Source: Candidatus Rokuibacteriota bacterium
GTDB taxonomy: Bacteria; Methylomirabilota; Methylomirabilia; Rokubacteriales; CSP1-6
NCBI GenBank assembly: GCA_016209635.1
Contig: JACQWC010000221.1
Span: 30,859-94,858, forward strand
DNA: 64,000 bases
Direction of reading: 5' to 3'
In this document: positions 14,203 through 63,910 of the stretch, piece after piece
How the letters are laid out: each line of letters opens with the position of its first letter
Position numbering within the stretch: position 1 is the first letter of the stretch
Made by a program: the position numbers and the translations under genes
The notes under the pieces: model-generated
Databases searched by the model: none
Told to the model about the DNA's origin: nothing
Seen by the model: only the letters and a program-made list of their open reading frames with translations

Positions 14203-14238
14203 GGCGACTCCGCGACCGGATTCAGGTGCCACCCCGTC

Positions 14239-18801: not shown

Positions 18802-18806
18802 GGCGG

Positions 18807-31306: not shown

Positions 31307-31350
31307 TCTCGGATCCTCCTTCCCAACTCTCTCGGACCTCACAAGAAGTC

Positions 31351-31977: not shown

Positions 31978-32105
31978 CGCCAAGCTGAACGCTCCGTGTC
32001 GTCAAGCCTAGCGGTGGTGGAGGGGCGAGGACATCCGGGAGGCGCCGCAAATCGGGGCCGGAAAATCCCTGACCGCGCGGCGAGCGGCCGGAAGCGGGCG
32101 GAGCG

Positions 32106-32738
32106 TCAGGGTTGAATCAAGCCACGGCGCACGGCATAGCGGACGAGACTGGCGGTCTCGTGGATGTTGGTTTTCCTCATGATGCGCGTCCGGTGGGACT
32201 CCGCCGTCTTGAAGCTGATCCCCAGGAGCCCGGCGATCTCCTTCGTCGACTTGCCCTCTGCGACGAGCTGCAGGACTTCCCGCTCCCGGGGCGTCAGCGG
32301 GTCCGGCGGCACGCCCGACTTGCTCAGGAACGCCTCGACGACGGTCTGCGAGATGCCGGGGCTCAGGTACACCATGCCCCGCGACACCTCATTGATCGCC
32401 CGGACCAGATCCGCCGCCGCCTGGGTCTTGACGACGTACCCCCTGACGCCCGCCTGGAGCGCCTCCAGGACGTAGTGGTCGTCCGTGTGCATCGTCAGAA
32501 GGATCGCCTTGGCGCGGGGACAGGACTGTAAGATTTCCCGGGCCGTGTCGAGTCCATTCAGGAGCGGCATCGCGAAATCCAGGACCGCCACGTCCGGGCA
32601 CCGCTCCCGCGCCGCGCGCGTGGCCTCCTGGCCGTCCCCGACCTCGGCAACGATCGCGAACCCTTCGCGCTCGAGCAGGGCCTTCAGGCCCTGCCGGACG
32701 ATCAGATGGTCATCGGCGAGGAGAATCCGCGTCGGCAC
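32106..32738 (-). CDS. NarL/FixJ-family response regulator, paralog 2 (tandem duplicate)
   Basis: Collinear with 31351..31977 over all 208-210 aa, roughly three-quarters identical by eye, and also similar at DNA level. GTG start. Confidence 0.93.
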   Translation of the reverse strand: MPTRILLADDHLIVRQGLKALLEREGFAIVAEVGDGQEATRAARERCPDVAVLDFAMPLLNGLDTAREILQSCPRAKAILLTMHTDDHYVLEALQAGVRGYVVKTQAAADLVRAINEVSRGMVYLSPGISQTVVEAFLSKSGVPPDPLTPREREVLQLVAEGKSTKEIAGLLGISFKTAESHRTRIMRKTNIHETASLVRYAVRRGLIQP

Positions 32739-34044
32739 CGCCTGCCTCCACGGGGACGGAGACGATCAGCTCCGTCCCGCTGCTGGGGGTGGAGATGATG
32801 TTCAGCGTTCCGCCAACCGCGTTCAGCCGTTCCTGGATCCCGAGGAGACCGAGGCCGCGCGAGCCTCGCCGCGCCTGCACCGCGGGCCCGTCGAACCCCG
32901 CGCCGTCGTCGCGGACCGAGCACCGCAGGAGGAGACCCTCACGCACGAACCTGATCACCACCCGGGTTGCCTGCGCGTGCCTGGTCACGTTGGTCAGTGC
33001 TTCCTGGACGATGCGGTACAGGGCGGTCTCGGTCGGCGAGGGCAGGCGCTTGCCCGGGGAGCCTTCGACCGAGATGACGAGCCCGGTGCGCCGCGACACC
33101 CCGTCGGCGAGGAACTCGACCGCCGGCCGGAGGCCGAGGTCGTCGAGGATCGTCGGGCGCAGCTCGTGGGACATGTGCCGCAGCTGCTCTTCGATCTTGG
33201 TCAGGAGCCCTCTCACGTCCTCCAGGCGCCGGGAGGCGTGGGGCGGCAGGTCCAGCACGATCTCGGCCAGGACGATATGGACCGAGGCCAGCAGCTGGCC
33301 CGCCTCGTCGTGGAGCGCGTGGGCGATCCGCTTGATCTCTTCCTCCAGCGCCTCGTTGAGGCGCCGCAGCGCCTCCTCCGCGCGCTTGCGGTCGGTGATG
33401 TCGCGCGCGACGCCCAGAACCCCCACGATCTGCGCGTCCTGCACGAGGGACGTGGCCTGGAACTCCCCCGGGATGTAGGCGCCCGACTTCGAGAGGATGC
33501 GCAGCTCGAACATCGGCGGGACCTTCCCCTCGAGGACCACCTGGTAGAGCTCCATCGCGCGAGGGAGGTCGTCCGGGTGAACGAGGGGGGGAAATTCCTT
33601 GCCGATCCACTCGGCGCGGGACCAGCCCGTGATTGTCTCGAAGACCGGATTCAGAGACTTGATCTTCCCGTCGGTCGAGAGCGTGTAGATGACGTCCCGC
33701 GCGGTCTCGACGAGATTCCGGTAGCGTTGTTCGGACTCGAGGAGCGCCGCGTTGGTCTCCTGGACCCGGCGGTGGGACATCTCGAAGGGCAGCAGGCTCT
33801 CGACGAAGAGCCTGTTCGCCGCCCTGAGAGTCCGCGATCCCTCCTTCGCCGTCTGGACCTTCAGCAGGCACGTGAGGAGCGCCCGGTGCTGGATCGTGAC
33901 CATATCGAGCACGCCCAGTCCCTTGGCGAGCGCCTGCCGCCCCAGCTCGTACGCCTGCTGGAGCGCGACCTCCCCGCGTCCCGCCAGGTAGTCCTGCAGG
34001 GCACGCCCGCACTGCGTCGCGAGCCCGCGGACCTCAGCGTTCAT
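32710..34044 (-). CDS. Sensor histidine kinase: RsbU_N-like N-terminal domain + PAS + HisKA_3 + HATPase_c (no TM segment)
   Basis: ATG at 34044. N-terminus MNAEVRGLATQCGRALQDYLAGRGEVALQQAYELGRQALAKGLGVLDMVTIQHRALL... parallels the RsbU N-terminal (RsbT-binding) domain. PAS: YRNLVETARDVIYTLS...GVARDITDRKRAEE. H-box IAHALHDEAGQLL. ATPase: GLGLLGIQERL. Confidence 0.88.
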   Translation of the reverse strand: MNAEVRGLATQCGRALQDYLAGRGEVALQQAYELGRQALAKGLGVLDMVTIQHRALLTCLLKVQTAKEGSRTLRAANRLFVESLLPFEMSHRRVQETNAALLESEQRYRNLVETARDVIYTLSTDGKIKSLNPVFETITGWSRAEWIGKEFPPLVHPDDLPRAMELYQVVLEGKVPPMFELRILSKSGAYIPGEFQATSLVQDAQIVGVLGVARDITDRKRAEEALRRLNEALEEEIKRIAHALHDEAGQLLASVHIVLAEIVLDLPPHASRRLEDVRGLLTKIEEQLRHMSHELRPTILDDLGLRPAVEFLADGVSRRTGLVISVEGSPGKRLPSPTETALYRIVQEALTNVTRHAQATRVVIRFVREGLLLRCSVRDDGAGFDGPAVQARRGSRGLGLLGIQERLNAVGGTLNIISTPSSGTELIVSVPVEAGGADADSPRR

Positions 34045-34648
34045 GCGCCGGCCCCATGTAACGGGCAACGAGGACGAGCGCATCGTCGGTCCGCGTTCCC
34101 CACCCGGTGAGGATGTGATCGGCGAGCCGCTGCGGCGAATCACCCAGGACGAAGTGCTCGACGGCGAAATCGGATCGGACACCGTCGGTCGCGAAGATCA
34201 GCGTGTCGCCTCCCGTCACCGGGACGATCGCGGCGGCCAGCGCCGGCAGGTGCACCCCGACGACGCCGCCCCGCATGATCAGCGACTCGCGGCGCGGACT
34301 CGCCGTCGCGTGGGCGCGCACCAGCAAGCCTTCGACGTTCCCGACGCCGATCCACGTCAGCGTCTCCTCACGCACGTTGAACATGGCCACGCTCATGACG
34401 ACGCCGCGGGTGCCGGCCAGGCTTCTATGGCAGTCCCTGATGAGGGGGATGGTCGACTCTTGCGCGTGAAGCTCGATCGACTTCACGGCGGCCTTCGCCG
34501 CCTCGGCGGCCTCGGCGCCGTGTCCCAGGCCGTCCACGACGGCCGCGAGCACGCCGTCCGGCGTCGGCTTGACCAGGTAGCGGTCGCCGGACTCCGTCTG
34601 CCCGGGCAGGATGAAGTCGGCGACGGCCCAGTCGACCGGGCTGCGCAT
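34034..34648 (-). CDS. rsbX: PP2C-type phosphoserine phosphatase, RsbX-like
   Basis: ATG at 34648 overlaps the rsbT TGA (ATGA). GDRYLV...VVDGLGHGAEAAEAA...TRGVVMSVA...IGVGNVEG...TDGV parallels B. subtilis RsbX. Confidence 0.85.
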   Translation of the reverse strand: MRSPVDWAVADFILPGQTESGDRYLVKPTPDGVLAAVVDGLGHGAEAAEAAKAAVKSIELHAQESTIPLIRDCHRSLAGTRGVVMSVAMFNVREETLTWIGVGNVEGLLVRAHATASPRRESLIMRGGVVGVHLPALAAAIVPVTGGDTLIFATDGVRSDFAVEHFVLGDSPQRLADHILTGWGTRTDDALVLVARYMGPAHER

Positions 34649-35064
34649 CAGCGCTTCCACTTCCGGGCCTTCACCGTCGTCCCCTTACCGGACTCGGAGC
34701 TGATGTCGAACTCGTCCATCAGCCGCCGGACGCCCGGCAAGCCCAGACCGAGGCTGCCAGAGGTCGAGTAGCCGTCCTGCATGGCCAGCGGGATGTCGAG
34801 GATCCCGGGCCCCTCGTCCGCGGCCTCGACCTCGACCGCCCGCCGGCCGTCAGTGTCGATCAGCCGGAGAATGATCTCGCCGCGTGCCGCGTAGCGGACA
34901 ATGTTCCTCGCCAGTTCGGAAATCGCTGTGGCGACCACCGCCAGGTCGGTGGAGGGAAAGCCGCACTGCGCCGCCAGTTCCCGTCCCTTCTGGCGGGCAG
35001 CGACGATGTCGGCCTCGGAGTCTATCGGCACTCGCACTTCATCAGCGATGAGTGCGTCCTTCAT
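34648..35064 (-). CDS. rsbT: Stressosome switch kinase RsbT-like (anti-sigma regulatory factor Ser/Thr kinase)
   Basis: 138 aa. IVAARQKGRELAAQCGF...AISELARNIVRYA...DEGPGI...MQDGYSTSGSLGLGLPGVRRLMDEF is nearly collinear with B. subtilis RsbT. Confidence 0.92.
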   Translation of the reverse strand: MKDALIADEVRVPIDSEADIVAARQKGRELAAQCGFPSTDLAVVATAISELARNIVRYAARGEIILRLIDTDGRRAVEVEAADEGPGILDIPLAMQDGYSTSGSLGLGLPGVRRLMDEFDISSESGKGTTVKARKWKR

Positions 35065-35431
35065 GGTCCGGGACTTTCATCCTGCCCTTCCGGGCAAGAT
35101 ACGCGAGGCCTTCCTCGAGATCCAGCGAGGTCGCTACGCCCTCCAGCGTGAGCCCCAGCTTGACCATCGAGAACGCGACCTCCGGTTGGATGCCGACGAT
35201 GACGGTCTCCGCGCCGCGCAACCGGATCATGTGGGCGATATCGCGCAGGGTGCGGGTCGCGAAGGAATCGATCACGTCCAGCGCCGTGACGTCGATGATG
35301 ACTCCGCGTGCCCTGACCACACTGACCCGCTCGACCAGGGTATCGCGCAGCTGTTTCAGGTCCTCGTCCGTGAGCGCCGACTGGACCGTCGCGATCAGAT
35401 AGAAGCCCTGCTTGAGGATCGGAACCTGCAC
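35042..35431 (-). CDS. rsbS: STAS-domain stressosome scaffold RsbS-like
   Basis: 129 aa. MQVPILKQGFYLIATVQSALTDED..., GVIIDVTALDVIDSFATRTL with the conserved phosphorylatable Ser context. Confidence 0.9.
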   Translation of the reverse strand: MQVPILKQGFYLIATVQSALTDEDLKQLRDTLVERVSVVRARGVIIDVTALDVIDSFATRTLRDIAHMIRLRGAETVIVGIQPEVAFSMVKLGLTLEGVATSLDLEEGLAYLARKGRMKVPDHEGRTHR

Positions 35432-35443
35432 GGTCCTTCCCCG

Positions 35444-36343
35444 CTACGCCGGCTGTACGGCGGGCTCCAGAGTCGGGAGAACCTTGTAGCCCAGCAGGCG
35501 CTCGGCCTCCTCGATGCCGCCCTGGAGGTCACCCACCGTGTTCATCTTGCCCAGGTCCACCCCGATATTAACCAGAGTCTGGGCGATTTCGGGCGACAAA
35601 CCAGTCACGATGACGGTGGCGCCGAGGAGCCGGGCCGCTTCGACGGTCTGGACGAGGTGGTTCGCCACGGGCGAGTCGATGTACGGCACGCCGGTGATGT
35701 CGAGCACGACGACCTTGGCGCGGTTGGTCCGAATGCCCCGGAGGAGCTGCTCGGTCAGCTGACGGGCGCGCTGGGGGTCGATGACGCCGATGATCGGCAG
35801 GATGAGCAGGCGCTCGCGGACCTGGAGCACCGGGGTCGACAGCTCGCGGATCGCCTCCTGCTGCTCGCGGATGATACGCTCGCGCTCCTGGACGAAACCG
35901 ACGGCGACCGTGATCGCGATACGGTTGGCGGCGGGCTCGTACGCGTCGAGGATCCGGTTCAGCTTGTTGAAGTCCGCCTGGTACTTCGCGAACAGCGAGC
36001 GCGCGAGCACGTCGCGGAGCAGGAGCACGATCCCGACGACCTCGTTCGTCTCGACGCCTCGCGGAATGATGCGTTCCGAGAGGTTGCGCGCGTAGGCCTG
36101 CAACGCCTCGTACGTCCCCGTCTCGAGGGCCTCGACGTAGTTATCGTAGACCGAGGTCGCCTCGGCGAAGATCTCTTCTTTTGTCATCGCCGTCAGCAGT
36201 TTGGCCTCGGTGATGAGCCGAGCCCACTCTTCGCGCAGCTGGGCGCGCTGCTGCCTGAGGTGCGCCACCAGCTCGCGAAGCAGAAAGGCCGTGGATTCGA
36301 GGCGGGGTTCGGTCGCGGTCACCAGGTCCCGGGAATCACTCAT
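35444..36343 (-). CDS. rsbR: RsbR-like stressosome sensor (N-terminal non-haem-globin-like domain + C-terminal STAS)
   Basis: ATG at 36343; the track N-terminus is shadow. STAS part LSTPVLQVRERLLILPIIGVIDPQRARQLTE...VVVLDITGVPYIDSPVANHL... carries the conserved Thr context. Confidence 0.88.
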   Translation of the reverse strand: MSDSRDLVTATEPRLESTAFLLRELVAHLRQQRAQLREEWARLITEAKLLTAMTKEEIFAEATSVYDNYVEALETGTYEALQAYARNLSERIIPRGVETNEVVGIVLLLRDVLARSLFAKYQADFNKLNRILDAYEPAANRIAITVAVGFVQERERIIREQQEAIRELSTPVLQVRERLLILPIIGVIDPQRARQLTEQLLRGIRTNRAKVVVLDITGVPYIDSPVANHLVQTVEAARLLGATVIVTGLSPEIAQTLVNIGVDLGKMNTVGDLQGGIEEAERLLGYKVLPTLEPAVQPA

Positions 36344-36430
36344 CGGACACCCCCTGCCTGCTCGACCTCGCAGGCGTCTCTCGGCGAATAAAACCCGCGA
36401 GAACCCTACCGCCAGGAGCCCCTGAGTCCT

Positions 36431-36448
36431 ATCAGGTATTTGCCTGAT
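36431..36448. promoter_or_regulatory. Palindrome ATCAGG-N6-CCTGAT in the AT-richer divergent intergenic region
   Basis: Read directly. It lies about 90 nt upstream of the rsbR ATG and about 150 nt upstream of the GAF-protein start. Confidence 0.25.
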
Positions 36449-36597
36449 TTGGCCACCGGAAAATTCTTGAGCCAAGTCCGAAGTCGAGGGGCCGGGAGGC
36501 CCGCTTTGCCCCGAAGGTCGGGTTGGGCATTTTCCCTGTTCCGCTTCCGGGATTCACCCGATTGTTCGGGAAATGCCTGAGGGCTAGCCTTCGCGTC

Positions 36598-45141: not shown

Positions 45142-46005
45142 TCAGCCCTTGACGGCGCCAGCCGTGAGGCCGGAGACGTAGTAGTCGAGGAAGAAGACGT
45201 AGCAGATCACGATCGGGACGCTCGCCAGCACCGCCCCCGCCATGAGCGACCCCCAGTAGTAGATGTCGCCCCGGATGAGGTCCGACGTCACGCCCACAAC
45301 GGCGGTCTTGTTCGCGGTCTGCGACACGAAGGTGAGCGCGTAGATGAACTCGTTCCAGGTGAGGGTGAAGCCGAACAGGGCCGCGCACACCACGCCTGGA
45401 ATGGCCATGGGCAGGACGATCCGGAAGAGCGTCTGCATGCGGGTGGCGCCGTCCACCAGCGCGCACTCCTCGACCTCTCGGGGGATCGTCCGGAAGTAGC
45501 CCATCAAGAGCCACGTGGAGAACGGGATCAGGAAGGTGGGGTAGGTCACGATCAGCGCCCAGATCGTGTCCGAGATGCCGAGCCAGACCACGACCTGGGA
45601 GAGCGGCAGGAAGAGGAGCGTCGGCGGCACCAGGTAGGTGACGAACACCGCCGTGCCGAACGAGCCCACCCCGGGGAAGCGCAGCCGCGCCAGGCTGTAG
45701 CCGGCCAGGATGGAGATCAGCAGCGAGGCCGAGGTGGCGACCAGGCTGATCACGAGGCTGTTCTTCATCCACGTGAAGAAGTCGGTCTGCTGGAACAGGT
45801 AACGGTAGTGGTCCGTGATCACGCCGGTCTGGACCCAGAACGGGATCGATTTCAGATTGTACAGCTCCGCGTTCGACTTCAGCGACGTCACGACCATGAA
45901 ATAGAAGGGAAAGAGCGCGAAGAAGACGAACGGGACGAGGTTCGCATACCCGAAGGCGGCTGACCGGATCCCGGCTGCGCGGCTCTGGGCGCTCGCCACC
46001 GTCAC
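45142..46005 (-). CDS. Carbohydrate ABC transporter permease (MalG-like)
   Basis: C-terminal 287 aa of track ORF 45142..47733. GTG at 46005 overlaps the upstream TGA. EAA loop ...EECALVDGATRMQTLFRIVLPMAIPG. Confidence 0.9.
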   Translation of the reverse strand: MTVASAQSRAAGIRSAAFGYANLVPFVFFALFPFYFMVVTSLKSNAELYNLKSIPFWVQTGVITDHYRYLFQQTDFFTWMKNSLVISLVATSASLLISILAGYSLARLRFPGVGSFGTAVFVTYLVPPTLLFLPLSQVVVWLGISDTIWALIVTYPTFLIPFSTWLLMGYFRTIPREVEECALVDGATRMQTLFRIVLPMAIPGVVCAALFGFTLTWNEFIYALTFVSQTANKTAVVGVTSDLIRGDIYYWGSLMAGAVLASVPIVICYVFFLDYYVSGLTAGAVKG

Positions 46006-46940
46006 TCCCGCCGGATGTACCGCAGCTGGAAGAAGACGACGGCCGCGAGCATCGGGAACAGGAACAGCGAGATCGCCGCCCCCTGTCCGAGGTTGCCGCC
46101 GTTCAGCCCCACCTGGTAGGCCAGGGTGGCGAAGAGATGGGTCGAGTTGACCGGACCGCCTCGGGTGAGGATGTACACGATGTTGAAATCGCTGAAGGTG
46201 AAGATCGTCGAGAAGAGGACGACGACGGCGATGACCGGCTTCAGGAGGGGCAACGTCACGTGGAAGAACCGGCCCCACGAGCTGGCGCCGTCCACCTCGG
46301 CGGCCTCGTAGTATTCGCGGGGGATCGAGACCAGGCCGGCGAGCGTCGTGATGGCGAAGAAGGGGAGACCGCGCCAGACGTTGACGGTGATGACGGCGGT
46401 CATCGCGTACCCCGACATGCCGAGCCAGTTGGGCCCCGGGGGATTTATCAGGCCGAGGCGGATCGCCGTCCAGTTCACGACGCTGTAGAGCGAGTCGAAC
46501 ATCCACCACCAGGCCAGCGTCGACAGCGCCGTCGGGATGACCCAAGGGAGGAGGACGGCGCCGCGGAGCAGCCGCTTGAACCGGAGGTTCCGCGCGAGGA
46601 GGAGCGCCAGCCACACGCCCAGCACGCTCTTGAGCGTGACGGCGATCGCGGTGAAGACGAACGAGTTCCAGACCGTCTGGCGGAAGACCTCGTTGCCCAG
46701 GATCGCGCGGAAGTTCTCGAGGCCGACGAACTTCCCAGGCGAGCCGACCCAGTAGTCGGACAGGCTGAAGTAGATGGCCATCCCGAAGGGGTAGGCGACC
46801 AGGCAGATGAGGAGCGTGAGGGCGGGCAGGATGAGGCCGTAGCCGAACACATGCTCCTGCTCCCACCACTCGCGGGCGCGCGCGAGGTGGCCGACTCGTG
46901 GGAGCCCGGCCACCTCGAGCGCGCGCGGACCAACGGCCAT
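46002..46940 (-). CDS. Carbohydrate ABC transporter permease (MalF-like)
   Basis: 312 aa. EAA loop YEAAEVDGASSWGRFFHVTLPLLKP. Confidence 0.9.
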   Translation of the reverse strand: MAVGPRALEVAGLPRVGHLARAREWWEQEHVFGYGLILPALTLLICLVAYPFGMAIYFSLSDYWVGSPGKFVGLENFRAILGNEVFRQTVWNSFVFTAIAVTLKSVLGVWLALLLARNLRFKRLLRGAVLLPWVIPTALSTLAWWWMFDSLYSVVNWTAIRLGLINPPGPNWLGMSGYAMTAVITVNVWRGLPFFAITTLAGLVSIPREYYEAAEVDGASSWGRFFHVTLPLLKPVIAVVVLFSTIFTFSDFNIVYILTRGGPVNSTHLFATLAYQVGLNGGNLGQGAAISLFLFPMLAAVVFFQLRYIRRE

Positions 46941-46946
46941 GCGCGC

Positions 46947-48242
46947 CTAACCGACCTTGAGGCGGCCCTGCACGGCCAGAGCTATCTGATCCTGCGCCCA
47001 CTCCATCACGCGCTTGGTGGGCATCCCGTTGATCGCCTTGGCGAGCATATCGGGGAGGATGTAGTTGGAGTCGATCAACTGGACCGACGGGTTGGGCTTG
47101 GCCGGCCAGCCCCGCGGGTGGGCGTACTCCGCTTCTCCGGGGAGCATCGCGAACTTCGGGTTCCGGGCCCAGATCGGATGGTCGGCGAAGTGCTTGAGTG
47201 GCGGGTGGTTGAAGGCGTTGGAGGCGACGATCCAGGCGTCGAAGTTCTCCTTGCGGTAGAGGAACTGGATGAACTCCTTCGCCAGGTCGACGTTCTTCGA
47301 GAATTTCCAGATCCCCAGCCCCAGGATGGGCGGCGCCGAGTGGGTCCCGGCCGGCCCCGCCGGGCTGGCGTGGTGATTGATGTCGTCGGCGATGGGCTGC
47401 TTGTTGGCGAGGGCGGCGTTGTAGGGGCTGATCGGGTTGTGGATCCAGGAGCCCTTGCCCGAGAGGATGAACCGGTTGTTCGAGGCGTCGTCCCACGAGA
47501 GCACCTCGGGCTCCATGGCGTCCCTGTAGAGTTCCTTGTACCACTCGATGACCTGCGCGGTCTTGTCCGAGTTGATCCCCGGGGTCTTGCCGTCCGCTTC
47601 GAGCACCTTCCCGCCGTAGGACCAAGCCACCGACCAGTACGTCGTGTTGGCGTCGGAGCAATGGCTGACGGGGATCCCGACCGGGTTGCCCTGCTTCTTG
47701 AGGCTCTTCCCTTGCTTCAGGAGCTCCGCCCACGTCTTCGGCGTCTCGAGGCCAGCCTTCTTGAAGTGGGCCTGGTTGTAGGTGGCCGGGAAGGAGATCC
47801 AGAACCAGGGGACGCCTCGCCAGCCCGACTTGGTCTCGTGGGCCTCGGCCGCGAACGGATACCAGCCGCCGTACTGCCTGCCGAGCTTGTCGACCAGGTC
47901 GCCCACGTCGGCCAGGAGGTTCTCGTAGAGGAACGGCACGACGTTGTGGGTCCGGATCATGTCGTGGCCCGACTGCGACTGGGCCTCGGCCGCGAACTTG
48001 GCATCGAGCTGGAGGTGGGCGATGGTGTCGACCCGCACCGTGACCCCGGCCTGCTTGCCGAAGGCCTCGGCCTGCTTTCGGAGCTCCACATCGGCGGCGG
48101 GAACGAAGTGGTTCCAGGAGAGGAACGTCAGCTCGCGCTTCTGCGCGAACGCGGGCGGCGTCCGGAGAGCGAGCCAGGAGGCCATCCCGGCGGTCGCACC
48201 GGCGGTCGTCCGGAGGAACTGTCGACGCGAGGTCCTGGTCAT
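46947..48242 (-). CDS. ABC transporter extracellular solute-binding protein (family 1, sugar type) with Tat signal
   Basis: ATG at 48242 with AAGGAG upstream. MTRTSRRQFLRTTAGATAGMASWLALRTPPAFA twin-arginine signal. Confidence 0.88.
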   Translation of the reverse strand: MTRTSRRQFLRTTAGATAGMASWLALRTPPAFAQKRELTFLSWNHFVPAADVELRKQAEAFGKQAGVTVRVDTIAHLQLDAKFAAEAQSQSGHDMIRTHNVVPFLYENLLADVGDLVDKLGRQYGGWYPFAAEAHETKSGWRGVPWFWISFPATYNQAHFKKAGLETPKTWAELLKQGKSLKKQGNPVGIPVSHCSDANTTYWSVAWSYGGKVLEADGKTPGINSDKTAQVIEWYKELYRDAMEPEVLSWDDASNNRFILSGKGSWIHNPISPYNAALANKQPIADDINHHASPAGPAGTHSAPPILGLGIWKFSKNVDLAKEFIQFLYRKENFDAWIVASNAFNHPPLKHFADHPIWARNPKFAMLPGEAEYAHPRGWPAKPNPSVQLIDSNYILPDMLAKAINGMPTKRVMEWAQDQIALAVQGRLKVG

Positions 48243-48334: not shown

Positions 48335-48364
48335 CTTCTACCACCCGCGGCGGGAGACTGTCAA
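48335..48364 (-). promoter_or_regulatory. Sigma70-like promoter candidate TTGACA-N18-TAGAAG overlapping the selenoprotein stop codon
   Basis: The minus strand reads GATTGACAGTCTCCCGCCGCGGGTGGTAGAAG. The -10 is also part of a small hairpin GGTGGT-N8-ACCACC. Confidence 0.3.
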
Positions 48365-49233
48365 TCGAGATGGTCGGCGGCGGCGCCCGAGCCCTGGGCG
48401 CGGCCGAGCGGGCGCTCGGCGAACCCCGTCTGGACCGCCTTCCCCACGCCGTAGAGCTCGAAGTCGGGGCCGAAGTCCCGGTCCTCCCAGGCGTGATCGT
48501 CGGGATCCCAGACGTAGGGCAGGCTCAGGATCTGGCCCGGCTCCCAGAGCGTCTCGAACGCCCGGAGCGCGTCGAGGAGGATGCGGCGCTGGAGCGGCGG
48601 GTCGTGGGGCTTGCCCGTCTGGTGATTGAGGGGGAAATTCAGGAAGACGGCGCGGGGCGGGCGGACCGCGAACGTGATGTCCCACGCCGAGCTCATGCAG
48701 AGCGTCGGGATCCCCGCCCTCTCGATCTCGCGCGCGGTCAGTCCGACGGACTGGTGGCAGACCGGTCAGACGGGGACGAGGAGGACCGCGTCGACTGCCA
48801 TCCGTCCCAGATCCGCGAGGATCTCCGCGGCCCGGCCGATGTCCCGGCGCGCCGAGTAGAAGGTGACGAAGCTCACCGCATAATCCGCGAGCCCGCCGAT
48901 GACGCCAGCGGCCGCCAGTTCCCTGAGCCGCTCCAGCGGGAAGATGCAGTTCGGATCCCGGTCGGGGTCGTCGTCCCGGTACCCATGGTGGTAGATCCTG
49001 AGCTCACGCACGTCGACGTCCACCGGGATCAGCCGGTACGACGGGTCGTTCTCCTCGAAGGGCGGCTGGCCCTTCGCGTAGAAGCCGCCCGAGCTGATCA
49101 GCGCGAGCCGGCAATCGCGGAGCGGCCTCGCCAGCGGCGTCCACGGCGCGTCGGTGTTCACCACCCAGTTGAACGGCGGGTACTGCGCGTACCGCTCACG
49201 GGTTCGCTGGATGTAGGCGATCGGCACGGTCAC
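48361..49233 (-). CDS. GrdB/PrdB-family (glycine/sarcosine/betaine/D-proline reductase B-like) candidate selenoprotein; TGA at 48766..48768 read as Sec
   Basis: Track ORFs 48766..49233 and 48361..48696 share one frame. They are separated only by that TGA and 23 sense codons. The joined sequence reads ...AVDAVLLVPV-U-PVCHQSVGLTAREIERAGIPTLCMSSAWDITFAV...FPLNHQTGKP.... A GTG start at 49227 has better SD spacing than 49233. Confidence 0.7.
48735..48768 (-). promoter_or_regulatory. TGA(Sec) codon plus SECIS-like stem-loop immediately downstream
   Basis: The minus strand reads UGA-C-CGGUC-UGCCAC-CAGUCC-GUC-GGACUG-ACCG. Inner 6-bp stem CAGTCC/GGACTG with a GUC loop; outer CGGTC/GACCG, sharing one G. 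Confidence 0.5.
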
Positions 49234-49249
49234 CTCCTCGGCGAGGGGA

Positions 49250-50170
49250 TCAGAGTTCGGGACGGCACACGGCGCGGAAGTTGCACCACTTGCAGATCCG
49301 CAGATCCTCGGTCCGCTCGAAGTCGGTGATCGCCGCGACGTTCGCCTCCGGGTCCGCGAGGTAGGCCTTCATCGAGCGGATCGAGAGGCGGAGCTGCTCC
49401 TGGATCGCCTCGAGGCGCTCGTCGTCCCAGCGGAGCGGCGTGACCTGGGGCTCCCGGAGGTTCGCCTCGTAGAGATCGACGTCGCGCGGCGCCACGCCCA
49501 GCACCGCCTGCGCGTACAGGGCGTAGCAGCCGAGCTGGAAGGCCGCCGCGTCCGGGTTGGCGCCGCCGGTCTTCCAGTCCACCAGCGCGAGCCGGCCCTC
49601 CCCGGTCCAGAAGCCGAAGTCCGGGGCGATCCAGATCTGCGTCCCCTCGAAGTCGAAGACCTTGGACCAGTGCTCGATCGACCAGTGCTCGGGCGACGTG
49701 CGGCGGATCGTCGCGAGGAGCGGGAGCCGGAAGAAGTTCCTCAGACAGGTGGAGACGTTCCGGGAGAGCGCCTGCCAGGCCTCGGGCGGGAGGTCCACCG
49801 CGTACTCGTGCTCGAAGAGGGCCACGGTCTTCGGGTTCTCCCGGTAGCGGCCCGCCCTGGAACTCTTCCACTCGCCGCGCATGCGCTCGATCACGTCGCG
49901 GATGAAGGGCTCCACCGGGATGTCGCGGCCGTCCCGGAAGGCGTGGAGCGCCATCTCGACCGCGTCGTGGACCACGCGTCCCGCCCACTGCTGCCGCGAG
50001 GAGAGCTGCTTGAGGATGTACAGGCGCCGGACCTCAGCGGGCGCGTCGGCCTCCCAGCCGCCCCAGGAGCCGTAGTAGCGGTAGAAGTACCTCCGGCGGC
50101 ACTCCTGGAACGTGCTGTCGCGGCTCCGGGACCAGGAGAAGTCGTTGGTCAGCGCCGGCATCGCCCGCAT
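49250..50170 (-). CDS. PD-(D/E)XK nuclease (Cas4/AddB-nuclease-like) with 4-Cys Fe-S cluster signature
   Basis: 306 aa. N-terminal FQECRRRYFYRYY, core LVDWKTG and QLGCYALY, C-terminal CKWCNFRAVC. Confidence 0.78.
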   Translation of the reverse strand: MRAMPALTNDFSWSRSRDSTFQECRRRYFYRYYGSWGGWEADAPAEVRRLYILKQLSSRQQWAGRVVHDAVEMALHAFRDGRDIPVEPFIRDVIERMRGEWKSSRAGRYRENPKTVALFEHEYAVDLPPEAWQALSRNVSTCLRNFFRLPLLATIRRTSPEHWSIEHWSKVFDFEGTQIWIAPDFGFWTGEGRLALVDWKTGGANPDAAAFQLGCYALYAQAVLGVAPRDVDLYEANLREPQVTPLRWDDERLEAIQEQLRLSIRSMKAYLADPEANVAAITDFERTEDLRICKWCNFRAVCRPEL

Positions 50171-58315: not shown

Positions 58316-59193
58316 TCGGCGAGCGAGAGACCCAGGAGTCGCGCCGGGTCCACGCGAGCCGTCCCCACCTGGACGCCGAAGTGCAGGTGGGGACCCGTCG
58401 CGCGACCGGTGGCTCCGACCGTCCCGATCGGCTGGCCCCGATCGACCAGGTCCCCCTCGGTGACCGAGACCGCATCGAGGTGGAAGTAGAGCGTGTAGAG
58501 GCCGAACCCGTGGTCCAGGACGACCAAACGGCCCGGGAAGAAATACTCGGCCACGAGGACGACCCGGCCGGAGTTCGCGGCGACCACCGGCGCGCCGAGC
58601 GGGGCGGCATAGTCGGTGCCGCCGTGAGGCGCCCGGGGCTGGCCGTTGATGATCCGGCGCGCCCCGAAGCCGCTGCCCGGCTCCGAGCCAGCGACGGGGC
58701 GCGTGAAGCGGCCGCGCCAGAGCCGCTCCGACGTGAGCATCCGGAAAAGGGTGCGCAACCGCTCCGCCTCGCCGAGGGCCCGGCGCTCGGTCTCGGGGTC
58801 GAGATCGACCATCGCCGGCGGCAGCGTCAATCGCTCCACGGGAAAGTCGCGCGGCCGGATGTGGAGGGTGCCCCGCACCGTCCGCGGCTCGCGGCCGGAT
58901 TCCAGGATCGCGAGCCGCCAGGGCTGGGCCCCGGCCTTCGTCTCGAGATCGAGGCCCGAGAGCGCCGCATGGCCGCCGCCGTAGGCGAAGAACGCGAGGG
59001 ACCGGCCGCCGAGCGACCCCTCGACGGAGGCCTCGGCCGGGGCGCCCTGGACGCTGACCCACGCGACGTCGCCGGCCGCCGGCCGCGCGGGCCGCCACAC
59101 GACCCGCAACCCGTCCGCGGCCTCGGCGAGCGCTCCCGGGGGTGAGACGACGAGCAGCGCCCATCCGAGCAGGATGAGCGCGGCGGCGGTCAC
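58312..59193 (-). CDS. M23 family metallopeptidase with N-terminal signal/anchor
   Basis: C-terminal 293 aa of track ORF 58312..59838. GTG at 59193 overlaps the PAC2 TGA. HGGTDYAAPLGAPV, GATGRATGPHLHFGV. Confidence 0.88.
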   Translation of the reverse strand: MTAAALILLGWALLVVSPPGALAEAADGLRVVWRPARPAAGDVAWVSVQGAPAEASVEGSLGGRSLAFFAYGGGHAALSGLDLETKAGAQPWRLAILESGREPRTVRGTLHIRPRDFPVERLTLPPAMVDLDPETERRALGEAERLRTLFRMLTSERLWRGRFTRPVAGSEPGSGFGARRIINGQPRAPHGGTDYAAPLGAPVVAANSGRVVLVAEYFFPGRLVVLDHGFGLYTLYFHLDAVSVTEGDLVDRGQPIGTVGATGRATGPHLHFGVQVGTARVDPARLLGLSLAD

Positions 59194-60080
59194 TCGGGTC
59201 GCTGCTGCCGGAGGAACTGCTCGATCTCCGCGACCAGCTCGGCCGCCGGCGGGAGATCGGACGCCTGGGCCTCCGGACCGGGCGGGTTCTCCTCGGCGTC
59301 CCGCGACTCGAGCTTCTTCACGTAGTTCGCGATCTTCGCGTTCTGCGCCAGGACCTCGGCGAGATTCGCCTCGAACTGCCGCGTCGCCTCCTCGAGATCG
59401 CTCAGATCGAGCGAGGCGCCGAGGAGCGTCAGGACGCGCCGGACGAGCGCGAGCGCCGCCTTCGGGTTCTCGATGCCCGAGACGTAGTGAGGCACGTTCG
59501 CCCAGAGGCTCCCGACCGGGACCCCCTCCTGGCGGCAGATCGTGTTCAGGACGCCGACGATCCCGGTCGGCCCCTCGTAGCGCGTGGGCCGGGTTCCGAG
59601 CACCTGGGCCAGCTCGGGATCGGAGGCGCCGCCGACGAGGCGGACGGGCTTCGTGTGGGGCACCTCGGCGAGGAGGGCGCCGAGGGTCAGCACCAGCGTG
59701 GCGTCGCAGCGGCGCGCGAGGTCGAGCACGGCCTGGCAGTAGCGCTTCCACCTGAGGTGCGGCTCGACGGCGACGCCCACGATCACGTCCCGCGCGAGGT
59801 CGGGCGACTGGACGACCGAGAACTCCGTGGCCGGCCACACGATCTCGCGCTCCGTCGGCGATCCGGCCTTGAACCGCACGTACGGGCGGGAGAGGCCGAA
59901 GTGGTAGAACTCCTCGGGATCGATCTCGGCGAACTTCTCGGCCCGGAAGGAGGTGGTGAGGTAACGGGCGGCGGTCGTCGCCGACTCCGCGGCGTCGTTC
60001 CAGCCGCTGAAGGCCATGATGAGGACGGGCCGGCGGGGCTCCCGCGGCAGCGTGTGAATCGTTAGCGGATCCACGGGCAT
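59190..60080 (-). CDS. PAC2 (proteasome assembly chaperone 2-like) family protein
   Basis: ATG at 60080 with GGAGGAGG 6 nt upstream. PVLIMAFSGWNDAAESATTAARYL...IDPEEFYHFGLSRPYV...IVWP... is typical of bacterial PAC2 proteins. Confidence 0.82.
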   Translation of the reverse strand: MPVDPLTIHTLPREPRRPVLIMAFSGWNDAAESATTAARYLTTSFRAEKFAEIDPEEFYHFGLSRPYVRFKAGSPTEREIVWPATEFSVVQSPDLARDVIVGVAVEPHLRWKRYCQAVLDLARRCDATLVLTLGALLAEVPHTKPVRLVGGASDPELAQVLGTRPTRYEGPTGIVGVLNTICRQEGVPVGSLWANVPHYVSGIENPKAALALVRRVLTLLGASLDLSDLEEATRQFEANLAEVLAQNAKIANYVKKLESRDAEENPPGPEAQASDLPPAAELVAEIEQFLRQQRPE

Positions 60081-60158
60081 GGCGCGCCTCCTCCGGAATC
60101 TCAGGGCGAGTCTACCACGGGACGCGCGTGCCGAGCGGCGCGCGACCGATCTCTCGGG

Positions 60159-60187
60159 TTGACCCGTCGGAGGGCCGCGGGTAGCAT
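60159..60187 (+). promoter_or_regulatory. Sigma70-like promoter candidate TTGACC-N17-TAGCAT
   Basis: Read directly. The -10 ends 35 nt before the ATG at 60223, with a GGAGGG SD in between. Confidence 0.45.
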
Positions 60188-60222
60188 GGGGGCGCGGCAC
60201 ATTCCTGACGGAGGGTTGGCAC

Positions 60223-60480
60223 ATGCGAATCGATGGTGCACGGCTCCTGCTGATCGGCGGCGCGCTCCTCATCCTGACCGGCTGCGCGACCAGCGACGAG
60301 TGGGCCACGTGGAAGGCGCACAACACCCACTTCGCTTCCAGCGACCATCTGTTCTTCTCGACCCGGAACACCGAGGGCAACCCGCCGAAGGTGACGCGGA
60401 ACGACATCGCGATGGCCCGCACCGAGGCGTGGTGGGGCAAGCCGATCACCGTGAGTCAGGAGCAGATCCTGGAGCGCTAG
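60223..60480 (+). CDS. Small lipoprotein
   Basis: 85 aa. Lipobox LILTGC after the signal peptide MRIDGARLLLIGGAL. Confidence 0.7.
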   Translation: MRIDGARLLLIGGALLILTGCATSDEWATWKAHNTHFASSDHLFFSTRNTEGNPPKVTRNDIAMARTEAWWGKPITVSQEQILER

Positions 60481-60482
60481 GC

Positions 60483-61166
60483 GTGTCGCGGGGCGCGGTC
60501 CTCGCGCTCGCCGTCCTCGCTCTGGCGGGGGGAGCCGCGGCGGCGCCCCACGAGGACCGGATCCTCCCCCTCGAACAGTACACCTCGGAAAAGGGCCGCG
60601 CGCTGGCGCACGCCCACTCCCGCGTCCTTCGCGAGCTGAACAGCGAGATCTATCACTGCCTCCCCTGGGTGGAGATCGAGAAGGAGTCCATCGGCTTCTT
60701 CAGGCCCAAGCACCTCCAGCGGGACGATCGCTATCTCTCCCTGCGGATCTACATCGAGCAGGATCCCTCGCCGGCCTTCTCCCGGGCGTCGCTCGAAGCG
60801 CGGGCGTCCGCGATGTTCTCGCGGTACGTGGGCCCGCTCCTCCGGCGAATGGCGCGCGACGCCGCCCTCCTCGCCGACGGGTCCGTCGACGGCTTCACCG
60901 TCGTGCTCGAGTGGCAGAAGGACGCGCAGCGCCAGGGGGAGCGGCCGATCCACGAGACGATCGCGGCGTTCGTCGACAAGCCGACGGCGGTCGACTACCT
61001 CGCCGGCCGGCTGCGCCCGGACGAGCTGGTGGCGCGCGCGCGCGTGCTGGGCTGGGACGGAGAGACGCCGCGCGGCACCCTGCGCCTGCAGGCGTGGGAC
61101 GACAACTTCGTCGCGACCTACAAGGTCAAGAACTACCAGCTCGAGCCCGGCGTCTCCTGCCAGTAG
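60483..61166 (+). CDS. Secreted hypothetical protein
   Basis: GTG 2 nt after the lipoprotein stop. Signal peptide VSRGAVLALAVLALAGGAAAA. High GC3. No family recognised. Confidence 0.6.
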   Translation: MSRGAVLALAVLALAGGAAAAPHEDRILPLEQYTSEKGRALAHAHSRVLRELNSEIYHCLPWVEIEKESIGFFRPKHLQRDDRYLSLRIYIEQDPSPAFSRASLEARASAMFSRYVGPLLRRMARDAALLADGSVDGFTVVLEWQKDAQRQGERPIHETIAAFVDKPTAVDYLAGRLRPDELVARARVLGWDGETPRGTLRLQAWDDNFVATYKVKNYQLEPGVSCQ

Positions 61167-62014
61167 CGCTCAAGAGATTCGCGGACCGCCGCGGCGATGC
61201 GCGCGAGCGCCCGGGCCGCGTCGCGCTCCGGCTCGAGGGCGACGAACGGCGCGCCCCGATCCGCCGCCGCCGCGAGCAAGGGATCGAAGGGTATCCGGCC
61301 CAGGAACGGGATCCCGGCGGCGGCGGCGAGAGCCCCGGCATCGGGCCCCGGGAAGAGGCCGGCCATGTTCTCGACGAGGCCGAGGACGGGCGCCCGCGTC
61401 TGGGTGGCGACGGTGATCGACTTCCTGACGACGAGGTGCGACACCTCCGAGGGGATCGTGACGATCACGCTCCCGGCGAGCGCAGGAAGGACGGAGGCAA
61501 CCGTGGCGAGGCGGTCCGTCCCGGGCGGCAGGTCCACCAGCATCAGGTCGAGGTCGCCCCAGTTGGTGTCGGCCAGGAACTCGCGGAGCGCGTTGACCTC
61601 CATCGCGCCCCGCCACGTGTGGGCGTCTTCCTGCGTCGGCGCGTCCCAGGTCAGCGGCGTCGCGTCCGAGGGCAGGAGGAGATCCATCGACATCACCCTG
61701 ACGCCGAGGGAGGTCCGCGGCGGCTCGACGCCGCCGCCGACGACGTCGAGCCGCGCGCCTCGCACGCCCAGCATCTTGGCCATCGTCGGCCCGTTGAGAT
61801 CGGCGTCGAGGACGCCCACCCGCCAGCCGCCGAGCGCCAGGCAGCAGGCGAGGTTCGCGGTGAGCGCGGACTTGCCCACCCCGCCCTTGCCCGACACCAC
61901 GGCCACGACCGAGCGGACCCCCGCGAGGCGGCTCCGGAGTCGCGCCTGCTGCTCCGCGACCTGGCCCGCGATGTCCGACCCGGCGTCGCCGGCGATGTCC
62001 CTGTACCGCTTCAT
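61133..62014 (-). CDS. Mrp/NBP35 (ApbC) family Fe-S cluster carrier ATPase
   Basis: VVSGKGGVGKS deviant Walker A, DADLNGP, VDLPPGT, GLVENM. Confidence 0.9.
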   Translation of the reverse strand: MKRYRDIAGDAGSDIAGQVAEQQARLRSRLAGVRSVVAVVSGKGGVGKSALTANLACCLALGGWRVGVLDADLNGPTMAKMLGVRGARLDVVGGGVEPPRTSLGVRVMSMDLLLPSDATPLTWDAPTQEDAHTWRGAMEVNALREFLADTNWGDLDLMLVDLPPGTDRLATVASVLPALAGSVIVTIPSEVSHLVVRKSITVATQTRAPVLGLVENMAGLFPGPDAGALAAAAGIPFLGRIPFDPLLAAAADRGAPFVALEPERDAARALARIAAAVRESLERYWQETPGSSW

Positions 62015-62021
62015 CCGGGCC

Positions 62022-62465
62022 TCAGTGTTCCGCCGCGTGACGGGGCGCGGCCGCCCACGCGGCGCGGGCCACCAGGACCAGCGCCACGAGGGTGACGACG
62101 AAGAAGACGGCGGCGCCCGCCCGGAACGTGATCACGCCGCCCCACGGCGCGGGGACCGACGCGGTCTCGGACCGCAGCGCGATCTTCCCGACCTCCCACG
62201 CGCGAACGGCCATGAAGAGCGCCAGGACCCGCGCGAAGTCCCGGCGGGACAGGATCCAGCGCTCGAACCACGCGCGGGGGCGCCGCAGGAGGAAGGGGAT
62301 GAGGACCACGAGCGCCCCGCCCAGGAGGATCCACCCGATCCCCGCCGCCATCGAGCCGCGGACACCGACGCCGTGAAGGGCGAGGTACACGCCGCCGATC
62401 CAGTAGATCACGCCGTAGACGAAGTAGCCGCGGGCCGCGGCGCGGAACCGGTCGTCCGGACTCAC
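62022..62465 (-). CDS. Small 4-TM membrane protein, unknown function
   Basis: C-terminal 147 aa of track ORF 62022..63950. GTG at 62465 overlaps the radical SAM TGA (GTGA). Four hydrophobic segments. Confidence 0.6.
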   Translation of the reverse strand: MSPDDRFRAAARGYFVYGVIYWIGGVYLALHGVGVRGSMAAGIGWILLGGALVVLIPFLLRRPRAWFERWILSRRDFARVLALFMAVRAWEVGKIALRSETASVPAPWGGVITFRAGAAVFFVVTLVALVLVARAAWAAAPRHAAEH

Positions 62466-63910
62466 ACGCGGGGCCGGAAGCGACCGCCCCAGCGCTCGCG
62501 GACTTCCGCGAGGAGGGCGGGCGTGATCACGGTCTCGCCCCGCCCGCGCGCGTAGGCCTCGACCGCCTTCACCACCATGCCCCGCGCGAACGACGGGATC
62601 GCCGCCAGCCGGGCGCGGGCGGCCTCCTCCCAGCCGAGCTCGTACGCGACCGCGAGCCCGAAGGTGAGCGAGGACGGGAGATCGATCACCCGGCCGCCGT
62701 GGGCACCCGGCTGGTACGCGCACGCCGGGTCCTCGGCGAGGTAGTCGCCGTACGTGGCGTACGCGCGACACCGGCAGCCCCCGCAGATCTTCGAGAACTC
62801 GCAGGCGCCGCACCGTCCGTGGAGCCTCGGCTCGCGCAGGTCCTCGAAGACCTCCGCCGTCCGCCAGAGGTCGGCGAACCCCACCTCGCGCAGATTGCCC
62901 GCCGAGACCGGCATGTAGGGGCACGGCGTCACGTCCCCCTCCGGCGTGATGCGACAGTAGTACTTGCCGGCCGGACACGCGCCATGAGCGTAGTTCTGGA
63001 GGAGCGGCGAGGACGGGTCGCGCTGCCAGATGACGCGCCGGAAGTGCGGAGCGCACTTGGCGCGGATCAGGAGGCCACCGGCCCGGCCGACCGGCATCGA
63101 CCACGGGTCCTCGAAGCGAGCGCCAGGGGGGGGCAGGGGGTCTCCGCTCGGAACACCCTGGACCTTCGCGAGGTAGGTGAGGATGCGCTCGTACTCGGCG
63201 GCGTCGATGTCCGTGAGGTCCCGCCCGCGCCCCGTCCGCACGAGGAAGAAGAAGTTCAGCACCTTGGCGCCGAGCTCCTTCGCCAGATCGATCATCGCCG
63301 GGACCTCGCCCACGTTCCAGTCGGTGACGGACATGTGGAGCGAGAAGTCGAGCCCCTCGGCGGCGAGCGCGCGGGTCGCGCGGACGGCGCCGTCCCAGGC
63401 GCCCGGAAGGTGGCGGAACGCGTCGTGTCTCCGGGGATCGGTAGAGTCGAGGCTCAGGGAGGCGCCGACCACGCCGTGCTCGCGCATGAGCCGCGCCTCC
63501 TTGTCGCCCAGGAGGACGCCGTTGGTGCCGAAGACGGTGGTGAAGCCGCGCCCGACCGCGTGGTCGGCGATCGCGAAGAGGTCCTTGCGGAGGAACGGCT
63601 CGCCGCCGGTGAGGATCAGGAAGACGTTGGGGTTGACGAGGGCGATCTCGTCGATCACCCGGCGGCACTCCTCCGTGCTCAGCTCGACCCGCGTGTCCGC
63701 GCCGGCGAACGCCGACATGTAGCAGTGCGCGCACTCGAGGTTGCACCGCTGCGTCAGATTCCACGACACGGAGTACGCCGTGTACCTCTCGGCGGTGGGG
63801 GAGGGGGTGGGCCCAGAGCGAGTGTCGTGCGCGCTGGCTCGGGTGGGGGCAGGGGCGGGGTTCGGGTGAGTGTCTCTCCGAAACCCGACCCCGCCCCCGC
63901 TCCCGGCCAT
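62462..63910 (-). CDS. Radical SAM / SPASM-domain enzyme with a C-terminal PCP_red-like (protochlorophyllide-reductase-C-like) extension
   Basis: CNLECAHCY (CxxxCxxC), ILTGGEPFL. SPASM Cys cluster CPAG...CRITPEGDVTPCPY...GRCGACEFSKICGGCRCRA. Tail WEEAARARLAAIPSFARGMVVKAVEAYARGRGETVIT. Confidence 0.85.
   Translation of the reverse strand: MAGSGGGVGFRRDTHPNPAPAPTRASAHDTRSGPTPSPTAERYTAYSVSWNLTQRCNLECAHCYMSAFAGADTRVELSTEECRRVIDEIALVNPNVFLILTGGEPFLRKDLFAIADHAVGRGFTTVFGTNGVLLGDKEARLMREHGVVGASLSLDSTDPRRHDAFRHLPGAWDGAVRATRALAAEGLDFSLHMSVTDWNVGEVPAMIDLAKELGAKVLNFFFLVRTGRGRDLTDIDAAEYERILTYLAKVQGVPSGDPLPPPGARFEDPWSMPVGRAGGLLIRAKCAPHFRRVIWQRDPSSPLLQNYAHGACPAGKYYCRITPEGDVTPCPYMPVSAGNLREVGFADLWRTAEVFEDLREPRLHGRCGACEFSKICGGCRCRAYATYGDYLAEDPACAYQPGAHGGRVIDLPSSLTFGLAVAYELGWEEAARARLAAIPSFARGMVVKAVEAYARGRGETVITPALLAEVRERWGGRFRPRV
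63852..63897. repeat. 15/16-bp GC-rich inverted repeat inside codons ~5-20 of the radical SAM ORF
   Basis: GGGGCGGGGTTCGGGT-(15 nt)-ACCCGACCCCGCCCC; one bulged T. Confidence 0.6.

Follow-up and report, generated by a model that had tools for sequence, protein, structure and literature searches.

The selenoprotein family catalogued as 'proline reductase PrdB' is named after a clostridial enzyme (Zhang, Fomenko & Gladyshev 2005, PMC1088965; Zhang & Gladyshev 2008, PMC2398784). In the passages of these two surveys that concern it, the family is the third most abundant one in the Sargasso Sea, with 42 genes encoding selenocysteine (Sec) and one encoding cysteine (Cys) (PMC1088965), and ranks among the top families of the Global Ocean Sampling (GOS) survey, with 235 Sec forms versus 110 Cys forms, the domain pfam07355 and a UxxC motif (PMC2398784); these passages do not take up the question of a PrdA partner. 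For the bacterial Sec insertion sequence (SECIS), the minimal rule established for E. coli is an upper stem-loop of 17 nucleotides (nt) placed 11 nt from the UGA (PMC11431864), and a small apical loop containing G is expected, according to the section of the 2005 survey that treats the element (PMC1088965). Here we report that a stretch of 64,000 nt from a Candidatus Rokuibacteriota bacterium (assembly GCA_016209635.1, contig JACQWC010000221.1, positions 30,859 to 94,858 of the forward strand), referred to below as the window, very probably encodes a further member of this family: a PrdB-like gene on the minus strand whose in-frame TGA at 48766-48768 would be recoded to Sec by the elongation factor SelB and a hairpin in the codons that follow. 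On the comparative evidence presented below, we put the probability of this reading at roughly 0.88.

The window gene shares with the metagenomic family the same Pfam domain, the UxxC motif and the occurrence of Sec/Cys pairs, and differs from it in nothing essential; its host has 69% GC and is apparently of a soil or sediment type rather than marine plankton. It is an added member of a selenoprotein family known since 2005 and will be no surprise to selenoprotein specialists. An earlier reading of the window, made from its letters alone (the sequence-only reading), had presented the protein as an uncharacterised member of the GrdB/PrdB group; this stands as far as biochemistry is concerned, but the family itself had already been catalogued under the PrdB name in the relevant parts of both surveys (PMC1088965, PMC2398784). 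A literature search on 'PrdB-like' proteins and on selenocysteine in Rokubacteria found nothing relevant.

Two open reading frames (ORFs) on the minus strand, 48766..49233 and 48361..48696, lie in a common frame and are split by the single TGA at 48766-48768 and 23 sense codons (PVCHQSVGLTAREIERAGIPTLC), just as the sequence-only reading had described. The upstream ORF ends in ...AVLLVPV immediately before the TGA, and the frame then stays open for 134 codons, to a TGA stop at 48361-48363; the annotated ORF 48361..48696 is only the portion that follows the first ATG (48696). The read-through product contains ...LLVPV-U-PVC-HQS...REIERAGIP. The GC content of third codon positions (GC3), taken over 30 codons on each side of the TGA, is 0.90 upstream and 0.97 downstream, in agreement with the high codon bias that had been claimed across the site. 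The second GTG (49225-49227) is the likelier start, because the sequence upstream (GAGGAGGTGACCGTG) carries a GGAGG (49233-49237) 5 nt ahead of it and because P0001, the closest full-length homolog, begins with MPIAYIQ, matching this start; the product would then have 288 amino acids (aa), with U154 and C157. The protein of 290 aa originally proposed (GTG 49231-49233; U156, C159) is the less likely alternative. The features of the gene are:

48361..49227, minus strand: PrdB-like selenoprotein gene, predicted from its translation, its TIGR04483 and PF07355 matches and the start of P0001
49233..49237, minus strand: Shine-Dalgarno-like GGAGG, read from the sequence, its role presumed
48766..48768, minus strand: in-frame TGA, read as a Sec codon (U154 of 288 aa) on the strength of the conserved TGA/Cys column
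48757..48759, minus strand: TGC codon of the putative resolving Cys of U-x-x-C, also the 5' side of a weak lower stem, from the alignments
48739..48753, minus strand: predicted SECIS mini-hairpin, from RNAalifold, covariation and the comparison of Sec- with Cys-type genes
48364..48765, minus strand: the 134 codons that follow the Sec codon, with the annotated ORF 48361..48696 among them, from substitution rates and tblastn

Of all the TGAs scanned across the window, only 48766-48768 and one at 25568 have coding signal both before and after them; the latter was rejected as a second selenoprotein site, being an ordinary junction between the genes of a GNVR protein and a tyrosine-kinase ATPase. 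An acyl carrier protein (ACP) gene ending at 14239 was likewise rejected as a selenoprotein candidate, as a separate gene follows it.

Profile scans, run with Cys substituted for the in-frame stop, gave as the best family match the NCBIfam model TIGR04483 (PrdB, D-proline reductase; E = 2.8e-39); the alignment spans positions 16-234 of the 238 in the profile, and its score of 135 bits is short of the equivalog cut-off of 300 bits. The Pfam model PF07355 (GRDB) matched with 32.1 bits (E = 1e-7), above its gathering cut-off of 22; residues 33-153 align to positions 218-345 of 347, such that the model stops just ahead of the Sec column. These two matches bear out the GrdB/PrdB-like assignment made from the sequence alone. 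Models of the GrdB type align by their C-terminal halves only (~50 bits, profile positions ~220-425 of 431), and that of the selenoprotein B subfamily, TIGR01918, gave 52.9 bits against a cut-off of 65.45, which is not reached. Scanning the two halves of the protein separately showed that the Sec column falls, from either flank, at position 148 of TIGR04483 and at position 346 of TIGR01917/TIGR01918, which we take to agree with the published Sec residues of PrdB and GrdB, respectively. At this catalytic column, where PrdB and GrdB have Sec or Cys in a U-x-x-C motif, the window protein reads U-P-V-C, and the Cys of the motif is invariant (C159 in the 290-aa numbering in alignment A2, and the equivalent C158 of P0001 in alignment A4).

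Compared with clostridial PrdB, the window protein is of a similar size class and has the Sec of its U-x-x-C at the same profile position, but it scores far below the equivalog cut-off, has no PrdA, PrdC or other prd genes beside it, and carries an extra C-terminal tail of ~45 aa, modelled with low confidence; in addition, the hosts of PrdB-like genes are largely non-clostridial (Acidimicrobiia, Gemmatimonadota, Myxococcota and probably Rokuibacteriota). With GrdB, GrdF and GrdH (TIGR01917, TIGR01918, NF040794, NF040795; PF07355) it shares a homologous C-terminal domain with Sec at column 346, whereas it lacks the N-terminal ~220 residues, falls below the subfamily cut-off and has no grd genes nearby. 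The statement that the protein is much shorter than GrdB was correct for GrdB, but the protein is of PrdB size, covering nearly the whole TIGR04483 profile. Relatives are named 'glycine/sarcosine/betaine reductase selenoprotein B family protein' by NCBI. The end of the PF07355 model just before the Sec column, together with database products that correspond to N-terminal halves, suggests that the family is systematically truncated in databases.

A search of 5.8 billion proteins, from which the 120 best matches were considered, divided the homologs into two kinds. About three quarters of these 120 are products of ~160 aa and match the query over its N-terminal half only; the ones that entered alignment A1 end exactly at ...LVPV, and several bear the label 'D-proline reductase (dithiol) PrdB'. 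The full-length homologs (~290-310 aa) have Cys at the Sec column (C-P-V-C), a few having Ser or Thr; P0001, 75% identical to the window protein, reads LLVPV-C-PVCHQSVGL, with the codon TGC at this column. The DNA of three short homologs (L001, L004, and L007; L004 comes from an Acidimicrobiaceae metagenome-assembled genome and occurs also in TARA contigs) contains a TGA at the same column, followed by PVCHQ(S/T)(V/I)GL... and onward for 135-147 codons. Metagenomes were also scanned with the pattern GTN CCN GYN TGA CCN RTN TGY CAY CAR, which returned at least 120 loci: all 120 matches listed are family members with an in-frame TGA at the same column, and the frame after the TGA typically extends for 100-150 codons, being shorter at contig ends and closing early in three loci among the matches listed (L051, L056, and L121). 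One locus, L109 (AACY023836033.1), presumably lies on a Sargasso/GOS contig, as we take the AACY prefix to indicate. The nearest Sec-type relatives of the window gene (L132, L053, L076, and L070; 70-80% identity) all have the TGA.

The pattern used on genomes contained Cys and hence returned only Cys-type loci, which served as the control set: 33 loci from Desulfobacterales, Alpha- and Betaproteobacteria (including Bordetella bronchiseptica), Caldilineaceae and others. An exhaustive search of representatives at 50% identity found 1638 clusters at E <= 1e-3 and 625 at E <= 1e-10. The family shows the pattern of a Sec/Cys pair, with a conserved in-frame TGA aligned to Cys in other homologs. The sequence-only reading had made its case depend on homologs that do not end at this position and have Cys or Sec in the aligned column, and the outcome was in its favour: Cys occupies the column in full-length homologs, and TGA does so in more than 120 others.

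Purifying selection acts on the codons downstream of the TGA, as shown by ratios of nonsynonymous to synonymous substitution rates (dN/dS) of 0.10-0.27 between the window and its nearest Sec-type relatives over 100 codons. In tblastn comparisons the C-terminal half is 75-80% identical and the N-terminal half ~70% identical, and conservation across the family is highest in the 23 codons that lie between the TGA and the ATG. Among the 12 codons that directly follow the TGA, those for Pro, Val, Cys and His (columns 12, 15, 18, and 21) vary only synonymously, at their third positions, among 114 distinct sequences. On these comparisons, 48364..48765 is best read as a translated part of the same gene and not as a separate gene.

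The same codons appear to encode an RNA structure. Alignment A3, which is free of gaps and contains 114 distinct Sec-type sequences, was folded by RNAalifold without prior input, and a single hairpin resulted: columns 21-26 pair with columns 32-37, forming a 17-nt element that begins 11 nt past the UGA (48738-48754 in the window). In a version with 8 base pairs (bp) and a 3-bp lower stem, 91.9% of the cells are paired, compared with 25-35% when the partners are slid by 1-3 columns, and the covariation score of the hairpin was reached by none of 500 shuffles; most cells of the lower stem (columns 16-18 with 40-42) are paired. Three pairs show compensatory changes: 25-33 (UA 70, AU 30, UG 8, GC 1, other 5), 21-37 (UA 76, CG 27) and 24-34 (GC 108, AU 3, GU 3), of which the latter two could partly reflect differences in GC content between genomes, such that the U-A/A-U swap at pair 25-33 is the only covariation free of this bias. 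At the level of codons, the partner of Ser UCC is Gly GGA, that of Thr ACC is Gly GGU or Ser AGU, and that of Ala GCC is Gly GGC; CAG for Gln is matched by CUG for Leu, and CAA by UUG, CAA and CUG never occurring together; and His CAU accompanies Ile AUN, as His CAC accompanies Val GUN. For the Gly in the stem, GGA is used by 70 sequences, GGT by 22, GGG by 8 and GGC by only 2, which is unusual for GC-rich genomes. The apical loop opens with G-U, conserved at 90% or more.

Comparison with the Cys-type genes points the same way. Sec-type sequences keep 7.6 of the 8 pairs and Cys-type sequences 5.2, with mean minimum free energies of -9.85 and -4.98 kcal/mol, respectively, although the two samples are phylogenetically non-independent. 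Two Cys-type loci with an identical HQSVGL peptide (L163 and L164) use the Gly codon GGC and have lost the stem, and 30 Cys loci of proteobacterial type do not keep the stem Gly itself. The closest Cys homolog, P0001 (L162:178-1053), with CAU CAG UCG GUC GGA CUG AUC, retains 7 of the 8 pairs; most of the stem being still kept there and lost in more distant Cys forms, its sequence suggests a recent Sec-to-Cys conversion.

In the window itself the hairpin occupies 48739-48753: CAGUCC (48748-48753) pairs with GGACUG (48739-48744) around the loop GUC (48745-48747), and the element is modestly stable when folded alone (-9.6 kcal/mol, z = -1.83). Covariation and geometry mark the element at 48738-48754 as a predicted bacterial SECIS: a stem-loop just downstream of the UGA with a small loop containing G. 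Like the SECIS of E. coli fdhF, it is a hairpin within the coding sequence just past the UGA, with a length of 17 nt and a spacing of 11 nt; it differs from it in its sequence, in a loop of only 3-5 nt and in that no bulged U is evident. The sequence-only reading had proposed a two-tier structure starting 1-2 nt after the TGA, of which only one part holds: a covarying hairpin does follow the UGA, but the stem at 1-2 nt (columns 11-16 with 47-52) is peculiar to this window and was rejected as a family feature, being paired in 68.4% of cells against 68.8% in shuffled alignments, with 332 of 500 shuffles as good and with no covariation. A scan of the window against Rfam, which has no usable bacterial SECIS model, gave no match.

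Several points weigh against Sec insertion in a PrdB-like protein at this locus. A Pfam pass over ~50 of the genes in the window found no SelA, SelB or SelD, and a tRNA scan of all 64 kb found no tRNA gene, hence no tRNA-Sec. The window copy of the hairpin is weaker than the family consensus, forming 6 of the 8 consensus pairs, as the two basal pairs are broken because Thr (ACC) replaces Ile/Val. A fold of 76 nt of the single sequence (z = -0.69) cannot be distinguished from shuffles in sequence of 69% GC, and it is for this reason that we rely on the comparative evidence, which itself carries the possible GC bias at pairs 21-37 and 24-34 and the shared ancestry of the samples noted above. On the protein side, the scores lie below the PrdB equivalog and selenoprotein B subfamily cut-offs, and no solved structure of the PrdB-like clade was found in the PDB.

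Other explanations of the TGA have to be set against the same data. Should the gene be a pseudogene or truly split, translation would yield an N-terminal fragment of 153-155 aa, and 48361..48696 would be untranslated or a small gene starting from the ATG at 48696. Gene callers do split the sequence here, many database products are of ~160 aa, and the single-sequence fold is not significant; this is nevertheless already contradicted by comparative data, as the 23 codons between TGA and ATG would not be expected to be the most conserved, with synonymous-only changes at Pro, Val, Cys and His in the first 12, nor the dN/dS downstream to be 0.10-0.27, nor the TGA to stand at one column in 120 of the 120 loci listed (at least 120 in all), nor the Cys-type homologs to be continuous across the site, and we consider a split or dead gene very improbable. 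We give equally little credence to the idea that an ordinary Cys-type gene (TGC or TGT) acquired the TGA through an error of sequencing or assembly or through a nonsense mutation at the strain level. A single base (A versus C or T) would suffice, and P0001 does have TGC; but the codons downstream of the TGA bear the hairpin signature of Sec-type genes (UCC...GGA), the GGA being found among Cys-type genes only in P0001 while distant ones have GGC or no Gly, and the four nearest Sec-type relatives (L132, L053, L076, and L070) all have TGA.

Somewhat less remote, although still improbable, is the possibility that the UGA is read through without selenium, either as Cys by a SelB-dependent variant of the tRNA-Cys(UCA) type or as Trp or Cys by a near-cognate tRNA, giving a full-length protein that is not a selenoprotein. 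A few bacteria are known to insert Cys at Sec codons, Cys evidently works at this position, as it is present in many homologs, and no Sec-machinery genes lie within the window. Against this, more than 120 unrelated lineages keep both the TGA and a SECIS of the SelB-binding type, a combination that is the classic hallmark of Sec; several surveys have counted the family among the true selenoproteins; and a lineage-specific switch would need the same hairpin and SelB anyway. Reassignment of UGA in the genetic code was ruled out, because UGA is the commonest ordinary stop in the window.

Structure prediction adds only the local position of the motif in a modelled relative. The AlphaFold2 (AF2) model of P0001, built from 31 homologs, has an alpha/beta fold with a predicted local distance difference test (pLDDT) score of 84.7 and a predicted template modelling (pTM) score of 0.85; its C-x-x-C lies at the junction of strand 148-152 and helix 156-171, and its last ~40 residues are disordered. 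The junction of a strand with a helix is a typical setting for a redox-active pair. Among solved structures, no meaningful relative was found in the PDB by sequence, and the best template modelling (TM) score in a Foldseek search with the AF2 model was ~0.3.

For Sec insertion at this gene we propose the following course. While the ribosome sits on the UGA at 48766-48768, the hairpin ~11 nt downstream, formed within the codons for H-Q-S-V-G-L, would recruit SelB carrying Sec-tRNA(Sec); the UGA would thereby be recoded to Sec during translation, which would proceed for 134 codons beyond it. The product would be an alpha/beta protein with a selenol at the N-terminus of a helix, three residues before the conserved Cys (U-P-V-C). 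This pair would most likely cycle between the selenol/thiol and selenenylsulfide states, as has been proposed for PrdB and GrdB, with Sec possibly acting as the nucleophile of a reductive cleavage and Cys resolving the intermediate, again as in PrdB and GrdB. The redox chemistry, suggested by analogy with these enzymes, is held much less surely than the recoding.

The gene stands alone. In the Pfam pass over the window there was no gene of the PrdA/Gly_reductase type, no PrdC or other prd gene, and no grdA, grdC, grdD or grdE, so the D-proline reductase system, in which PrdA and other prd genes accompany PrdB, is not seen within the window, and the location of the gene outside any grd or prd operon, as the sequence-only reading had it, is confirmed. 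No gene family recurs beside more than 9 of 124 Sec-type loci, and even the closest relatives share no synteny with the window. Its neighbours here are:

49250-50170: PD-(D/E)XK nuclease gene, ending 16-22 nt upstream of the PrdB-like gene
45142-48242: sugar ABC transporter, flanking the PrdB-like gene
Flanking, on the strand opposite to the PrdB-like gene: a tautomerase, an SMP-30-like protein and a Liv-type ABC system

Elsewhere in the family, one Sec-type locus (L105) and four related loci have a thiol peroxidase-like protein, assigned by reading the cluster representative, ~1.2 kb downstream of the TGA; five loci are too few for a conserved association. In two proteins, P0157 (805 aa) and P0201 (514 aa), the family domain is fused to an N-terminal AMP-binding domain of the kind that forms acyl or aminoacyl adenylates, and P0152 has an N-terminal HTH_3 domain; these fusions may be a weak hint at function or may be artefacts of gene calling.

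Because a PrdA or other pyruvoyl partner is consistently absent, as are prd and grd genes, both from the window and from the 124 related loci, and the score lies below the equivalog level, the window protein is probably not a subunit of a canonical D-proline reductase, and canonical D-proline reductase activity is unlikely; judged from sequence, a separate Sec-dependent reductase is more likely. More broadly, we lean slightly towards the view that the stand-alone PrdB-like proteins, in both their Sec and their Cys forms, are not subunits of proline reductase but constitute a separate and widespread family of selenol/thiol reductases that works without a pyruvoyl partner, in soil and marine bacteria that are largely aerobic. 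The substrate of this family may be linked to carboxylate activation, given the rare fusions to an AMP-binding (adenylating) enzyme.

The remainder of the window contains several gene groups, all on the minus strand. A long same-strand cluster for polysaccharide biosynthesis and export occupies 1-30300 and includes genes for a heparinase II/III-like protein, an epimerase, AsnB, a flippase, a deacetylase, GNAT proteins, an ACP with an AMP-binding enzyme, a Wzy-like O-antigen ligase, UDP-glucose dehydrogenase, a sugar transferase, a GNVR protein with a tyrosine-kinase ATPase, Poly_export, a NusG-like paralogue and GlmS (28421-30232); a gene for CofD (2-phospho-L-lactate transferase; 23730-24791) lies in its midst. 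The nearest named relative of the GlmS is a partial protein of a Candidatus Rokuibacteriota metagenome-assembled genome, 84% identical over 72% of the query, which, along with the 69% GC, points to a Rokubacteria-like host. Three ORFs have no Pfam match at E <= 1e-5: 16604-18826 (741 aa) and 13096-14238 (381 aa), inside the cluster, and 30401-32050 (550 aa), just past its GlmS end; the first and the last may not be real genes, because they fall outside the set supported by GC3. At 32109-36553 there is a regulatory module in the style of partner switching, consisting of a LuxR-type response regulator, a PAS histidine kinase with RsbU_N, a SpoIIE/PP2C phosphatase, an RsbW-like HATPase_c_2 kinase and a STAS-domain protein. 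Genes for a PAC2-family protein, an Mrp/NUBPL-type ParA ATPase and a radical SAM/SPASM protein with a C-terminal PCP_red domain adjoin one another at 59193-63910.

PrdB-like selenoproteins are among the most abundant in ocean and soil metagenomes, and their genes are split or truncated by standard gene callers. The SECIS of the family—a 17-nt hairpin, 11 nt past the UGA, in which Ser/Thr codons covary with Gly codons—offers a simple means to repair these gene calls. The consistent absence of PrdA suggests that the borrowed PrdB name hides an unknown reductase activity, and if the stand-alone proteins do form a separate family, thousands of truncated database entries labelled 'D-proline reductase PrdB' would be misnamed as to function.

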